Assembly: GCA_964419675.1 (NCBI GenBank)
Contig: CAYQPN010000003.1
Span: 11,985 to 75,984 of the forward strand
Length of the DNA stretch: 64,000 nucleotides
DNA from: an uncultured Candidatus Saccharibacteria bacterium
GTDB taxonomy: Bacteria; Patescibacteriota; Saccharimonadia; Saccharimonadales; SZUA-47
Reading direction: 5' to 3'
Shown: in pieces, positions 17,612-55,268 of the stretch
How positions within the stretch are numbered: position 1 is the stretch's first letter
Layout: each line of letters begins with the position of its first letter
The notes under the pieces: model-generated
Databases searched by the model: none
What the model was told of the DNA's origin: nothing
What the model saw: only the letters and a program-made list of their open reading frames with translations
Made by a program: the position numbers and the translations under genes

Positions 17612-17715
17612 TTAATTTACCTGTCTATTAGCAATAATTATCACCAATATGGGTTGATATAGCAAGTCCTATATCGTCAAAATCGAGTCAAAGCGTTTAT
17701 ACTTAAATAATGAAT

Positions 17716-17794
17716 CCCGTTAGAAACGTAAGGAATTAAAGATAGTTATAAAAATGATACTGGAAAAATTAACTGATTGGGGGTTTCTAACGGG
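17716..17794. repeat. 79-bp inverted-repeat element (MITE-like), copy A, inserted at a start codon
   Basis: Termini CCCGTTAGAAAC...GTTTCTAACGGG (12-bp perfect IR, 14 bp including flanking AT). Flanked by direct ATGAAT (17710-17715 and 17795-17800). Same length and termini as 54392-54470. Confidence 0.5.
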
Positions 17795-18166
17795 ATGAAT
17801 TCCGAAGATCCGTTTGAAAATTTAGTATCTGAAGCAATAGATAATATTCCAAAAATGTATCAGGATAAGATAAAAAACGTACTATTTTCTGTTGAAGACA
17901 TGCCTTCACTTGAGCAAAGAAAGAAGCTGGGTCTTCGTTCCTGTGATGCATTATTTGGTCTATATGAGGGCATCCCATTAACTAAGCGTAACGGGGCAGT
18001 TCACAGTATAGTACCCGATAAAATTACTGTGTTTCGCTACCCAATGATTAATATATTTACTGACACTAATGAACTAAAAAAGCAAGTCTACGAAACAATT
18101 TGGCACGAAGTGGCTCATTACTTTGGGCTTGACCACAAGCAAATACACTCAGCAAAAAACAATTAA
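17795..18166 (+). CDS. Zincin-like metallopeptidase family protein (HExxH)
   Basis: WHEVAHYFGLD HExxH motif. Small (~123 aa) protein of the Zincin_1 type. ATG 17795 is preferred over the TTG at 17777 in the ORF track. Confidence 0.75.
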   Translation: MNSEDPFENLVSEAIDNIPKMYQDKIKNVLFSVEDMPSLEQRKKLGLRSCDALFGLYEGIPLTKRNGAVHSIVPDKITVFRYPMINIFTDTNELKKQVYETIWHEVAHYFGLDHKQIHSAKNN

Positions 18167-28254: not shown

Positions 28255-28563
28255 ATGGATATATTTGTCCCTCATCATACAAAAGACAAAGTATTAATTG
28301 GTGAATATCCAAATCACCAAACCGGCGAACTTCGCGGATTATTAGATTTCAGTGGAATAGAAATTGATGGAGTAAGAAAGACAAATTTTCAAATATTAGA
28401 TCTCTGGGCTAAATCTATAGGCGCAGAAATTAGTGTGGAAGATGCTGTCACGGAAGAAGCAAGGCTTGCTAACCGAACATTGGAAATATATGTTGCTGAT
28501 AACAAATGGGTAGCAGATTGCTTCCTGAGTGCAGTTATTTTAGACACTACTCCTAGAGTATAA
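28255..28563 (+). CDS. Hypothetical protein (102 aa)
   Basis: ORF only. TGTTATACT extended -10-like motif 8 nt upstream. Confidence 0.4.
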   Translation: MDIFVPHHTKDKVLIGEYPNHQTGELRGLLDFSGIEIDGVRKTNFQILDLWAKSIGAEISVEDAVTEEARLANRTLEIYVADNKWVADCFLSAVILDTTPRV

Positions 28564-29872: not shown

Positions 29873-32800
29873 ATGAATATGAAGGTCATGTTAAACAACG
29901 AGCAGCAAAAAGCTGTAGATCATATCTATGGTCCTCTTTTAGTGCTGGCGGGGCCAGGAACAGGCAAGACTCAGCTACTTTCTGCCCGCATTGCCAACAT
30001 TCTGCAGAAAACCGATGCCAATCCGCAGAATATTTTGTGTCTGACATTCACTGAAAATGCAGCTCAAAATATGCGCGAACGGCTTACTAGTATGATTGGC
30101 GACGGAGCATACGACGTACATATCAACACCTATCACGGCTTTGGAAGTGACATTATTCGGCAGTATCCAGAATTTTTTGAAAACATAAACCTAGAAACAG
30201 GCGAAGATTCACGACTAGAGCGACCTATTGATGCTTTAAGGCAAATTCAGATAGTAGAAGAGATTATAGGCAAACTTCCATATTCTAGCCCTCTTATAGG
30301 CGCTAGACACTACATTAAAAACGTATCTAGCACTATTAGTGAGTTAAAACGTGGGTTAGTTACACCATCGTCACTGCGAAAATTAGCTAAGAGTAACCTG
30401 GCCCAAGTACAAAAATTATCTCCTAAGATTGCTGAACACTTGGCTGAGTTGGTCCGCTTTCCTTCAAGTGCAGAAAAATCAATTGAGCTTTTTGGTGGAA
30501 TTTCCGGCATACTAGAAAACCAAGACGGGTTAGCCGAAATTGCACATGAAGAGTTGCAAACTGCTATGGCTGAGGCTAGCGACATGGGCAAATCAACGCC
30601 ACTTACTTCCTGGAAAAACAAGTGGCTCAGCAAAGATAGTGATAATCAATTTAGATTTACGAACGAAGAGCAGCATTTTCGAATGAGTGAGCTTGCTGAT
30701 GTTTACGAAAATTATCAAAAAGAACTGGCGAGTAATCAATTATACGATTTTGACGACATGATTTTGCGAGTTATTGACGCACTCGAAAATCAAGATGAAC
30801 TACGCTTTAACTTGCAGGAAAAATACCAGTTTATTCTGCTTGATGAATTTCAGGACACTAACGCAGCCCAGTTTGAGCTAGTTAAACAACTAGCCGACAA
30901 CCCCGTACATGAAGGTCAACCTAATGTTTTTGCCGTTGGCGATGACGACCAAGCAATTTATGCATTTCAAGGAGCTCGCGTTAGTAATATGCTTTCCTTT
31001 AAAAACGCATACCGTGAAGTTAGGGTAATCAACCTGACAGAAAACTACCGCTCTCATCCAGACATTATTCACACAGCTCACAACATAGCAAAACAAATTG
31101 AATCTCGATTGCATTTGCAGATTGAAGGAATTGAAAAAACGCTGAGCGCTAGTGCAACTAACTTACCTAAGAATTCAATTCTCGAGCGGCATGAGTTTGA
31201 CGGTGAGGCCAATGAATACTCATGGGTGGCCAGCCGAATTAAAAAGTTAATAGTCGGTGGCGTGCATCCAAGTGAAATTGCCATTCTTGCCCCCAAACAT
31301 AAATACCTTGAGTCTGTTGTGCCCTTTTTGGTTAAGAATGACGTGCCAGTTACATACGAAAAACGCGAGAATATTTTGCGTACACCAATGCTCCAAGCCT
31401 TCCGATTAATGAGTAGGCTAATTTTGGCTTGCAACAGAGAAGATAAGTACCAAATGAACGAATTATTCCCACAGGTGTTAAGTCTAGAATTTTTTAGCAT
31501 TCCAGTTAAAGAAATTTGGGCGATAAATTGGAAAAATAGAAGTGCTGATTCTAAAGGGAAAAGTTGGGCAGAGTTAGCTCTGCAAAACCCATTACTTGAA
31601 CCACACATTTTATTTTTCTTAGGTCTAGGCCTAAGAGCAGAAAACGAACCTCTTGAATATATGCTGGATTATCTTACCGGCAGTACTTCACTAAAATTGG
31701 ACAAAGACACTAGATACAGCTCACCGCTAAAAACTTACTATTTTGCTGACAGCACCAAAAACACTCTGCAGTATTTTGAGCTGTTGACCAATCTCAGTGC
31801 TATTCGAGAACATTTACGTGCTCACCAAGCTCAAGAAGAATATTTACTAAACTTGCAAAACTTTATTGATTTTATACAGGCTTATGAAACGGCCGAACAG
31901 CCATTAATCAATACACACCCAATTGCTCAGAGTGCTGAATCAGTACAAGTTATGACAGTTTACAAAGCCAAGGGACTAGAGTTTGAGCACGTATTTCTGC
32001 TGTCTGTTCAGGACGATGTATGGGGCAAAAAAGCCCGGAGTAACACCTCTAAGCTAGACCTGCCAGCAAATCTGCAGCATATTCGCTATCAGGGCAGTAG
32101 TGAAGATGAACTTAGAAGGTTATTATTTGTGGCCATTACTCGTGCAAAGCATGGTTTGTATATTACAAGTCATGCCAGCAAAGATAACGGTAAATCAACA
32201 GAACCCGTAAAGTACTTGCTGGAATATAAAGACGGGGACACAAGGAAAAGCACCGTTTTGCCTGAAACAAACCAGACAGTACACGAAACGCACTTCAGCC
32301 CAACAGAGACAATGCAGGCGATTGATACTATGTGGCATAGTCGACATTTGGAAATAACGACCGATTTGAAGAGCTTGTTGCAAGAACGGCTGACAAAATA
32401 TGTGATGAGCCCAACGCACCTAAATACTTTTATAGATACAGAGCACGGCGGACCAGAGGTATTCTTGCTTCAAACACTATTACGATTTCCGCAAGCGCCA
32501 AGTGAGAATGGAGAATTTGGCACCGCTATACACAACACTCTAGACTGGTATCAGAAACACGCAATAGTTAGCAAATCTCCCACCATTACTTCCGTACTCA
32601 AGACCTACGACGAGCAGCTAAAAAGACGCTACATCCCTAAAGAACATAAGGATGATTATCGTAATCGAGGACACAACTCGCTCAAGAGTTATTTGTCAGC
32701 GACAGATAGTATGTGGCTCAAAACCGCTAAGAGCGAGGTTGATTTCAGAAACGAAGGTGTAATACTCGGAGAGGCACGGTTAACGGGTAAGATTGACCGC

Positions 32801-35633: not shown

Positions 35634-35665
35634 AAGAGGCCCCGATTTAAGGCCTCTTACTTTTT
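35634..35665 (+). terminator. Rho-independent terminator
   Basis: AAGAGGCC-N9-GGCCTCTT followed by ACTTTTT. Confidence 0.7.
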
Positions 35666-35700
35666 ACACATATAATACGCTATAGCGTATTATATGTGTA
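35665..35700. repeat. 36-bp perfect palindrome
   Basis: TACACATATAATACGCTA|TAGCGTATTATATGTGTA with no mismatch, between convergent genes. Confidence 0.9.
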
Positions 35701-47949: not shown

Positions 47950-48034
47950 TAGTACTTTTTTGGTGGCTTTTCGCGCCACACGACGACCTACTTTCTTGTA
48001 TCAACCAGAAAGTAGGCAAAGAAATGACAGCCGG

Positions 48035-48178
48035 ACAAGAAAAACGCAATAACAAACTATGAAAATGTACTGCGCCCTGAGGACGGCAAGCGGTCCAAAG
48101 TAGTTTAAGAGTGGAAGACTTTGGACTAGCTCAGGGCTTGATTCAGTATATTTTCATAGTTTGTTTTGGTTTTCTTGT
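48035..48178 (+). ncRNA. Candidate structured RNA or element: 144-nt rod-like hairpin
   Basis: Three coaxial helices: 48035-48071/48144-48178, 48074-48081/48130-48137 (GCCCTGAG/CTCAGGGC) and 48093-48101/48118-48126 (GTCCAAAGT/ACTTTGGAC). One arm mismatch is a G-U only on the + strand. No family assigned. Confidence 0.3.
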
Positions 48179-48250
48179 TTTATGGCTGGTTTGGCTACTA
48201 ACTAATGCGAACTACTAGATACTAAATACTAGAGCGGGTATACTGTTTCC

Positions 48251-53818: not shown

Positions 53819-54319
53819 TTACTGCTCAGCAAAAAGAGCATTTATATCTATCGTTGCTCTTGCACGATTAATAAAAAACTTTTCACAGATCGCCGTCATT
53901 AACAGACAGGCTACATCTTGCTGGCCACGATAGTCTAGTTCTAGGGGTACGATACTACTAGACCCGTCCATAAGGCTAATTACTCTTGCGTCCTCATCAC
54001 TAACCCTCAGTGATTGAAATGGAGACTTTGTTCTCACTCGTCTTTGGAAAATTTCTATCCCATCAACATCCCTGGGTAGTGTGAAGTCAACCGATATCTT
54101 AGGCATAGTAGGGTTGTCTTCAAAAACGCCTAATTTTTTTACAAGAACATTTCCCAAAACTCGTGAAGCTTCGCGCGCGGTAAAACCGTTAAAGGCAAGG
54201 TAGTTATTCATAATCGGAGCACTTTGGTACCAAGATAGTTCGGGACCGGCAACAAATATATCACCTGCCTTTCGACCAAAATATCTAGGGAACAACGGCG
54301 GAGTAGAAGTCAATGGCAC
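53819..54319 (-). CDS. Hypothetical protein (166 aa)
   Basis: ORF upstream of pyrH on the same strand. No motif recognised. Confidence 0.45.
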   Translation of the reverse strand: MPLTSTPPLFPRYFGRKAGDIFVAGPELSWYQSAPIMNNYLAFNGFTAREASRVLGNVLVKKLGVFEDNPTMPKISVDFTLPRDVDGIEIFQRRVRTKSPFQSLRVSDEDARVISLMDGSSSIVPLELDYRGQQDVACLLMTAICEKFFINRARATIDINALFAEQ

Positions 54320-54391
54320 AATAATATGTATTATACTACATATTTATTATTTTTGCAAGTCACTTGCTTATGTTAAATTATAGATATGAAT

Positions 54392-54470
54392 CCCGTTAGA
54401 GTTAAAAGTGCTAACCACCATATTATTTCGACTATACTGATACTTATTTACCTAGGAGGACTCTAACGGG
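54392..54470. repeat. 79-bp inverted-repeat element (MITE-like), copy B, inserted at a start codon
   Basis: Termini CCCGTTAGAG...CTCTAACGGG. Flanked by ATGAA(T/A) at 54386-54391 and 54471-54476. Carries an AGGAGG Shine-Dalgarno (54464-54469 region) for xth. Confidence 0.5.
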
Positions 54471-55268
54471 ATGAAATTGTACAGTTGGAACGTTAATGGC
54501 ATTAGGGCTGTCTGGAACAAGGGCATGTTTCAAAAATTTATTGAAGAACACGACCCGGATATTTTGTGTTTACAAGAGACAAAAGCTCAACCAGATCAGT
54601 CGCCCGTTGATTTACCAAACTACATAGAATACTGGAATAGTGCCGAAAGAAAAGGTTACTCCGGAACGGCTATTTTCAGTAAAGAAATGCCGCTAGAAAT
54701 TCGTAACGGATTTTCTGACGTTGTTCAGAATTATTTTGAATTTCCAGATAATTTTGGAGACCCCACATGTGAGGGCAGGCTACTGAGCGCAAGGTTTAAG
54801 AATTTTTGGGTGGTAACGGTGTATACCCCAAACAGTAAGGATAAGTTAGAACGTTTGAACTTGAGGCACAAAGTTTGGGACCCAGCCTTCTTGATGCATG
54901 TCAAAGAATTAGAACGAGAACTGCCGGTACTTATTTGCGGAGATTTTAATGTTGCTCACCAAGAAATTGACTTAGCAAGACCAAAAGAGAATCAAGACAA
55001 GCACGGTTTTACCCTTGAAGAGCGTGAGGGTTTTGACGAAATGATTCAAGCTGGTTTCATAGATACTTTCCGAGCACTTCACCCAGACCAGAAAGACGCC
55101 TACACCTGGTGGACAGCGTGGGGCGGAACAAGAGATCGGAACGTCGGCTGGCGCATAGACTATTGGATGGCCAGTAAAGAGCTATTTGGCAAAATCACAG
55201 AGGCAAAAATTCACCCAGACGTAATGGGCTCTGACCACTGCCCAGTGAGCATCGAAATAGACATTTAA
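54471..55268 (+). CDS. xth: Exodeoxyribonuclease III
   Basis: 265 aa. SWNVNGIRA, LCLQETK, GDFNVAH and SDHCPV motifs. Confidence 0.95.
   Translation: MKLYSWNVNGIRAVWNKGMFQKFIEEHDPDILCLQETKAQPDQSPVDLPNYIEYWNSAERKGYSGTAIFSKEMPLEIRNGFSDVVQNYFEFPDNFGDPTCEGRLLSARFKNFWVVTVYTPNSKDKLERLNLRHKVWDPAFLMHVKELERELPVLICGDFNVAHQEIDLARPKENQDKHGFTLEEREGFDEMIQAGFIDTFRALHPDQKDAYTWWTAWGGTRDRNVGWRIDYWMASKELFGKITEAKIHPDVMGSDHCPVSIEIDI

Follow-up and report, generated by a model that had tools for sequence, protein, structure and literature searches.

A probable mobile, MITE-like insertion that rebuilds the start codon of xth in an uncultured Candidatus Saccharibacteria bacterium

Introduction

In a 64,000-nucleotide (nt) stretch of DNA from an uncultured Candidatus Saccharibacteria bacterium (contig CAYQPN010000003.1, positions 11,985 to 75,984; the window), the gene xth, encoding exodeoxyribonuclease III, carries an 81-bp element at its start codon. 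This element, here called copy B, is quite probably a mobile insertion resembling a MITE (miniature inverted-repeat transposable element), one that rebuilds the start codon it enters. It is described here as a non-autonomous, MITE-like element of a large family that occurs mainly in the Candidate Phyla Radiation (CPR; Patescibacteria). Target duplications, the nesting of copies and the existence of empty and filled xth sites together argue for a transposable element of this kind. Genomes of the CPR are very small and densely packed with genes, and they are thought to contain little mobile DNA.

The insertion at the start of xth

The features of copy B and of the start of xth, all on the plus strand, are as follows.

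54371..54379, plus strand: likely extended -10 box of xth, TGtTAAATT, 6 nt 5' of the old ATG, read from the sequence
54386..54390, plus strand: old start codon and left copy of the target duplication (A + TGAA)
54386..54466, plus strand: upstream open reading frame (uORF) of 26 codons (MNPVRVKSANHHIISTILILIYLGGL, then stop), from the old ATG through the whole element
54391..54471, plus strand: element copy B, 81 bp, TCCCGTTAGA to TCTAACGGGA, from the sequence and an inverted-repeat search
54391..54403, plus strand: left arm, 13 nt, TCCCGTTAGAGTT, from the inverted-repeat search and the fold
54454..54459, plus strand: Shine-Dalgarno (SD)-like AGGAGG, just interior to the right arm, 11 nt 5' of the ATG
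54459..54471, plus strand: right arm, 13 nt, GACTCTAACGGGA, with the uORF stop TAA inside it and the A of the xth ATG as its final base
54471..55268, plus strand: xth (exodeoxyribonuclease III), start codon rebuilt by the insertion (Pfam Exo_endo_phos, 9.7e-29)
54472..54475, plus strand: right copy of the target duplication, TGAA, within xth codons 1-2

The layout over 54386-54475 is ATGAA, TCCCGTTAGAGTT...GACTCTAACGGGA, TGAA. A preliminary description of the window had placed a 79-bp element with a shared terminal core at xth and at one other gene (copy A, below), and its coordinates and sequence were verified. The figure of 79 bp holds from core to core, with CCCGTTAGA at 54392-54400 and its complement at 54462-54470. 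One further base on each side (T...A) belongs to the element, so that it is 81 bp long with 13-bp arms. The inverted-repeat search reports 54390-54402 paired with 54460-54472, 13 nt that are 100% complementary. The flanks ATGAAT and ATGAAA seen earlier around copy B are present and are best read as a 4-bp duplication, TGAA, with its left copy at 54387-54390 and its right copy at 54472-54475. The terminal A of the element and the TG of this duplication form the ATG of xth anew, and xth orthologues start with MKLYSWNVNG. The RNA of copy B is predicted to fold at -22.5 kcal/mol (z -2.3), and the stem pairs the A and the U of the xth AUG.

A family with constant ends

The second copy in the window is the following.

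17715..17795, plus strand: copy A, the same element, 81 bp, ending at the ATG (17795) of a Zincin_1 metallopeptidase gene

Copy A has the layout ATGAA, TCCCGTTAGAAAC...GTTTCTAACGGGA, TGAA, with its core pair at 17716-17794 and with TGAA duplicated at 17711-17714 and 17796-17799. Its old ATG (17710) is preceded, at a distance of 6 nt, by a TATACT box, and its RNA folds into a long stem (z -3.6). The two copies occupy single sites at housekeeping genes 37 kb apart. The core CCCGTTAGA has four exact matches in the window, arranged as two inverted pairs, against 0.35 expected. A fuzzy search of the window returned one further candidate (31501-31559), which has 3 mismatches and no duplication and is probably due to chance.

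Beyond the window, one genome per species was scanned with the pattern TCCCGTTAGA-N45-75-TCTAACGGGA, in which the 20 end bases are exact. At least 119 loci match this two-ended pattern, with chance matches estimated by us at fewer than 20. The similarity is thus not a local duplication confined to two loci, a possibility that the preliminary description had named as fatal to its proposal. Among the 80 records listed, at least 60 (~75%) are labelled Saccharibacteria or other CPR/Patescibacteria; the others are unnamed bacteria or bear Omnitrophota, Planctomycetota, WOR-3 or 'Gammaproteobacteria' labels of metagenome-assembled genomes. The element is also present on five IMG/VR contigs classified as viral (L203-L207), which may be phages of the CPR or cellular DNA placed in the wrong class. 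A literature search on the end sequences, on MITEs or palindromic elements of the CPR and on leaderless genes in Patescibacteria returned no description of the family.

The ends consist of [T/C]CCCGTTAGA followed by three variable but paired bases, which gives the 13-bp inverted repeat. End positions 1-10 were fixed by the search, and copies found independently of it have 0-1 mismatch. Covariation had been proposed as a check, and it is found: arm positions 11-13 vary, yet 87-96% of copies have Watson-Crick pairs there (null 40-55%), and from position 14 the pairing is random. The compensatory pair reported beside the core of the two window copies is arm position 11 (A-T in copy A, G-C in copy B), and the compensation extends to position 12 (A-T in copy A, T-A in copy B). 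In a sub-family (CCCCGTTAGA...TCTAACGGGG) the outermost pair is C...G instead of T...A, and the 4-bp duplication is kept. Examples of this sub-family are L078 6834-6903, L029 5908-6009 and the flanks in L030 and L117; in the last two loci, T...A copies are nested within C...G copies.

The length of 79 bp is not a constant of the family. The 128 copies collected measure 65-95 bp with a mode of 78, and copies outside the searched range measure 49-122 bp; of the conserved length and conserved termini named in the preliminary description, only the termini are found. The interiors of copies A and B had been called largely diverged, and they are unrelated, matching neither one another nor any of 126 other copies. 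Their shared internal ATACTG, pointed out earlier, is within chance for two AT-rich interiors of 60 nt. The interior, about 40-100 bp, is unconstrained. In a GC-rich subfamily a Y-shaped fold is conserved, and compensatory changes accompany it. Some of the covariation may be due to template switching in palindromes, with no need for selection. In a pair of orthologous in-frame copies in DUF711 genes (L107 782-846 and L111 7081-7145), the internal hairpin is flipped, GACATC-AAA-GATGTC against GGTATC-TTT-GATACC, so that the nucleic-acid structure is kept and the peptide is altered.

Evidence for mobility

Exact 4-bp repeats flank 86 of the 128 copies. They are specific to each copy and mostly of the form T..A, including TGAA, TGGA, TTGA, TGAG, TAAA/TTTA and TCAA. 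At other copies the repeat is shorter, with 11 copies at 3 bp and 15 at 2 bp; mis-paired nested copies account for some of these. The reconstructed target is A/TNNA/(T), where the slashes bound the duplicated bases; A stands at -1 in 72 of the 86 copies and T at the first duplicated base in 82. Sites away from start codons often read GGA/TNNA/TCC, which resembles the element's own ends. One copy lies within the arm of another, with TTAG duplicated, and several further nested copies were found.

The xth loci were fetched through the protein and are hence unbiased for the element's ends. About 40 orthologues are empty at the xth start and four are filled (the window, L123, L126 and L121). The empty sites show a -10 box (TGcTAnnnT), 6-7 nt and then ATGAAA once. 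In a protein tree the filled sites are not monophyletic. The four xth copies have 0-1 end mismatch, and no decayed copy was seen among these loci. Of the MITE features that were looked for, terminal inverted repeats, a target duplication of fixed length and empty and filled orthologous sites were thus found, whereas a parent insertion sequence or transposase with the same ends was not found in the loci searched.

Several observations weigh against a simple mobile element. In 1.2 Mb of loci there was no transposase or autonomous copy with these ends, and mobility is for this reason read from footprints only. End pairs 0.3-4 kb apart in the same loci proved to be only two separate small copies. 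All-against-all clustering of 995 open reading frames (ORFs) from the loci gave housekeeping families only, with no recurrent neighbour family, and a fuzzy search of the 1.2 Mb found few decayed copies. Thirteen copies at start codons have only a 2-bp TG repeat and the left flank AC[CT]TG, of which at least L017 and L112 are mis-pairings of nested copies. The genome scan required exact ends, and the sample of copies is not a census. Copies A and B have perfect ends though their interiors match no other copy, and xth loci either lack the element or carry it nearly intact, a picture that one would not expect of a purely neutral relic. This combination suggests recent repeated insertion, selection on the ends in place, or both. 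Nine loci (L010, L013, L015, L024, L028, L034, L056, L065 and L079) show the TG repeat, with AC[CT]TG directly before TCCCG and no upstream ATG.

Where the copies sit

In 85 of the 128 copies, an ATG made of the element's last A and the duplicated TG heads an ORF of 50 codons or more. The association with start codons seen at two genes in the window therefore extends far beyond them. The old ATG is kept at the left junction in 62 of these 85. An internal motif, CGGG(A), is present on the coding strand in 36 of the 85, and its complement in 4. The motif nearly repeats the right end, is mostly found close to the left arm and can pair with that arm, and we infer that the resulting local hairpin could compete with the long stem and free the start codon. 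In a crude census of 925 kb, copies occupied ~70 of 356 ATGNA gene starts; of the other non-coding ATNNA sites, 7643 in number, ~31 were occupied. Per site, occupancy is roughly 50-fold higher at the gene starts.

A second class of position is the promoter. Ten copies have a TTGA duplication, and about eight of these lie exactly on the TTGA of a TTGACA-N17-TAnnnT promoter, with the -35 box rebuilt; at least L003 and L048 lie in frame within genes instead. Some copies are found at the 3' ends of genes, where either the duplicated target contains the stop or the gene is terminated by the TAG of the arm (TCC CGT TAG). Eleven robust copies (about 9%) are intragenic. All eleven are in frame and stop-free and read x-PVR...SNG-x; their length is 2 mod 3 in 11 of 11 cases, compared with 41% of all copies. 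Their hosts are RsmH, GatB, UvrC, PepA, PurD, LipA, MetRS, DUF711 (two orthologues), an alcohol dehydrogenase and a glycosyltransferase, conserved enzymes to which they add 22-29 residues. The insert in RsmH corresponds to ~20 extra loop residues relative to the T. maritima structure. Since the frame is kept, stops are missing and the extra RsmH loop residues are seen, the in-frame copies appear to be translated, not skipped.

The genes that carry copies are unrelated (xth, Zincin_1, tyrS, ruvC, rarA and others). The suggestion that the element is a shared regulatory device was not borne out, as the host genes have no functional relation and copies also occur in coding sequence, at -35 boxes and at stop codons. 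One public Xth call (protein P0048, L121 868-1734) is 288 amino acids long, starts inside the element and reads ...RGNSNG-MKLYSW; because the element's frame is open, this call is an annotation artefact.

Why start codons

The excess at start codons is most likely the product of a weak A/TNNA motif and strong purifying selection in compact genomes. Selection would favour the ATG because most other 5'-proximal insertions break a promoter or a reading frame, whereas insertion at A/TGNA is silent. The genomes are 80-90% coding, with promoters that abut the ATG.

Active homing is a minority possibility. A transposase or host factor would direct insertion to start codons or transcription start sites, possibly by way of the melted or destabilised promoter DNA that lies 6-7 nt upstream in leaderless genes. 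The over-occupation of start sites described above could be explained in this way, as could the lack at start sites of the GGA/TNNA/TCC flank preference seen elsewhere, the filling of the same xth ATG in lineages that are not monophyletic and the class of copies placed exactly on the TTGA of promoters. A -10 box is found 5-8 nt upstream of 24 of the 62 old ATGs. However, in 11 of the 62 targets the gene is SD-led and lacks a -10 box close by, copies also lie deep in genes and at stop codons, and start sites share no conserved motif past A/TNNA. In genomes that are so largely coding, selection alone could clear most alternative sites.

A more elaborate version is rather unlikely. It sees the element as a translationally 'transparent' transposon that seeks start codons. 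The element would be steered actively to gene starts or promoters, and selection would then keep its ends in place as genes came to depend on the hairpin leader. Its 13-bp ends would re-create an ATG at any A/TGNA, provide a stop at the new ATG in two frames and read through as S-N-G-M in the third. The internal CGGG(A) motif would pair with the left arm and so free the start.

It is improbable that the element is a host cis-regulatory hairpin, with arms kept for binding by a trans-acting protein or RNase or for stabilising or gating the mRNA, and with mobility merely the way in which the module spread. The invariant 10-nt ends around free interiors would suit this role, as would the strand bias of CGGG(A), the pairing of the first two AUG bases in the stem and the protein-fetched xth copies, which have 0-1 end mismatch and include none that is decayed. 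Yet no function is common to the host genes; coding sequences, promoters and gene 3' ends all harbour the same element; and close xth orthologues manage without it. Palindrome covariation can also arise from template switching without selection. Finally, no Rfam family matches. At the gathering score, in the window and 18 loci, no Rfam hit fell on an element; at E<=10 over 54300-54560, only chance mir-234 matches appeared, outside the element. Riboswitches, leaders and ribozymes of Rfam were therefore set aside, there being no covariance-model match.

Movement as a single-stranded hairpin by an HUH or tyrosine enzyme, in the manner of REPIN/RAYT, the IS200/IS605-derived PATE or an attC-like site, is very improbable. 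The entire element does fold as a hairpin, its structure is conserved with covariation (including the Y-shaped fold of the GC-rich subfamily), and no transposase lies between its ends. The 4-bp duplications are nonetheless specific to each copy, whereas these systems leave none, and no RAYT-like gene recurs beside copies. REPIN/RAYT and PATE were rejected on the duplications and the lack of a recurrent adjacent gene. The order GTT...AAC on both strands is the reverse of attC (AAC...GTT), and there are no cassette arrays; an integron attC was rejected on this order and on the single sites at housekeeping genes.

That the element is skipped, through ribosomal bypassing (T4 gene 60, mitochondrial 'byps') or RNA-level removal between repeats, is hardly credible: identical stretches of 4-6 nt do flank a stable hairpin as matched take-off and landing codons would (ATTGAT on both sides in L003), but no stop follows the putative take-off codon, the RsmH insert appears as extra loop residues against a solved homologue, and all 11 intragenic copies are in frame and stop-free, which is needed only if they are translated and on which ground programmed bypass was ruled out.

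Proposed expression of xth

Judged from the sequence, xth is probably transcribed without a leader from the extended -10 box, which was not among the listings of a strict consensus promoter scan of the window. Of the 71 genes of the window, 17 show the layout of leaderless mRNAs, with TANNNT at a distance of 6-7 nt 5' of the start, and ~26 have SD-like motifs at 5-8 nt. The course of events would then be as follows. A separate enzyme would have moved the element in trans, into A/TGAA within xth codons 1-2; in relatives this gene is probably leaderless. As the element ends in A, the right junction would restore ATGAA and leave the coding sequence intact. The formerly leaderless mRNA would now begin with 85 nt made up of the old AUG and the hairpin. 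Ribosomes would start at the old AUG, melt the 13-bp stem that otherwise pairs the first two bases of the xth AUG and stop at the right-arm UAA, 4 nt 5' of that AUG. They would then reinitiate at the xth AUG, aided by the AGGAGG within the element. With a start at the old AUG and a stop-free interior, ribosomes would always be delivered to the new AUG.

The geometry of the right arm, TCTAACGGGATGA, is consistent with this proposal. In one frame it holds a TAA that ends 4 nt 5' of the ATG, as in copy B; in another frame a TGA overlaps the ATG (ATGA), and the third frame reads S-N-G-M into the gene. The uORF of copy B had been described with 26 codons and a stop at 54464-54466 in the right arm, both of which stand; the gap to the xth ATG, given as 5 nt, is 4 nt (CGGG). 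The uORF stop thus lies within a few nt of the main start codon. The SD-like AGGAGG reported near the right end of copy B is indeed present at 54454-54459. Of the 62 family copies that keep the old ATG, 34 have a uORF with no stop anywhere in the interior; shuffled interiors predict 13.7, and the other two frames are open in 9 and 14 of the 62. The open uORFs terminate at -7 with TAA or at +1 with ATGA, or else they fuse in frame. SD-like motifs lie inside the gene-proximal arm in 21 of 85 copies, compared with 2 of 85 on the control side, and all four xth copies have a purine tract at the SD position.

The remaining 28 of the 62 uORFs, that of copy A among them, stop early, and 22 of these 28 have no SD-like motif. 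These counts tell against reinitiation as the sole route, and other routes must exist. Translation of the uORF followed by termination-reinitiation at the xth AUG, which the preliminary description had raised, is thus a proposal with about an even chance of being right; the geometry recurs through the family and open uORFs are in excess, both of which make it plausible by inference.

Two other roles for the hairpin were tried and rejected. It is not a terminator, as a T-run is absent 3' of it. Nor is the element a promoter of a new leaderless transcript, as the bases 7-12 nt 5' of the new ATG are conserved arm and do not resemble a -10 box.

Comparison with known systems

Targets of the T...A type are duplicated over 4 bp by IS5 (YTAR) and by piggyBac (TTAA). 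The element differs from IS5/IS1380-type DDE systems in that its ends start T/C-CCC and its target is A/TNNA with free middle bases. As a lead only, the 13-bp piggyBac end CCCTAGAAAG... is similar to the element's CCCGTTAGAAA....

The bacterial MITEs Correia element/NEMIS (of Neisseria), RUP and Nezha are short, have terminal inverted repeats and a target duplication and lack a transposase gene; they are described as occurring in many copies, at orthologous sites that may be empty or filled, as co-transcribed with neighbouring genes and as folding into a long stem-loop (PMC3184786). The present element is like Correia, RUP and Nezha in being short, in its inverted ends, target duplication, stem-loop and empty and filled sites, and in having no transposase gene. 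It is unlike them in that the duplication is 4 bp at A/TNNA, the ends are only 13 bp with 10 identical across many candidate phyla, two thirds of the sampled copies sit on a start codon that they rebuild, and no parent insertion sequence is known. Three features set it apart from the described MITEs compared: the start codon rebuilt from its own terminal base, the arm stops in two frames, and the ends that are constant across CPR labels.

Rickettsia palindromic elements (RPE) are palindromic repeats that lie in frame within protein genes and are read as peptide (PMC3184786). Eleven members of the present family likewise lie in frame in ORFs and add peptide, which copies A and B of the window do not. 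Compared by description, the family differs from RPE in that intragenic copies are a minority (about 9%), in its length (65-95 bp against about 105-146 bp for RPE) and in occurring in another phylum. Mycobacterial MIRUs and Neisseria REP2 (PMC3184786) share a common logic with it, in which translation is coupled across an inserted repeat and small ORFs bridge stop and start. MIRUs, however, are tandem units between operon genes, whereas here a single hairpin splits and re-creates a start codon, and REP2 has no terminal inverted repeats. As in uORF reinitiation and translational coupling, the stop overlaps the start codon or precedes it by 4 nt, with an SD-like motif upstream, and a stem that the uORF ribosome would open encloses the start. 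Unlike usual uORF coupling, the putative signals lie within the terminal repeat of a mobile element and would be delivered with every insertion.

Implications

The identical 10-nt ends are kept across records with different candidate-phylum labels, and the family points to a transposition activity common to the radiation. In compact genomes, such an element survives by landing where it is least harmful and by carrying signals that keep the interrupted gene translatable. These signals are the A of the ATG, stops next to the rebuilt start and often also a ribosome-binding site. Gene prediction makes such genes too long or starts them in the wrong place, as in the Xth that was called through the element. 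In organisms that are difficult to culture, the copies offer a natural experiment on reinitiation and on initiation with and without a leader. Should the element prove to be a translationally transparent transposon, it would provide a general route by which leaderless CPR genes gain structured, uORF-coupled leaders.

Other features

The -10 box of genes in the window is often TGnTAnnnT, for example at the genes that start at 28255, 28572, 48251, 49303 (minus strand), 52294 and 53051 (minus strand). Outside the window, a Parcubacteria contig with two elements has a group I intron match (L019 3154-3454, 57.8 bits).

Three further inverted repeats were noted in the window. At 48028-48188, a near-perfect 160-nt hairpin with 45-nt arms and inner stems occupies an unusually large intergenic gap of 300 bp. 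Its RNA has a minimum free energy of -76 kcal/mol (z -8.4) and was negative in Rfam; it may be another repeat element or a structured RNA. At 35665-35700, a perfect, loopless, AT-rich palindrome of 36 bp (TACACATATAATACGCTA/TAGCGTATTATATGTGTA) lies between convergent genes. At 25139-25258, a 21-nt inverted repeat, 95% complementary, surrounds a tRNA-Gln gene (25156-25230, minus strand) and may be a precursor-processing stem.

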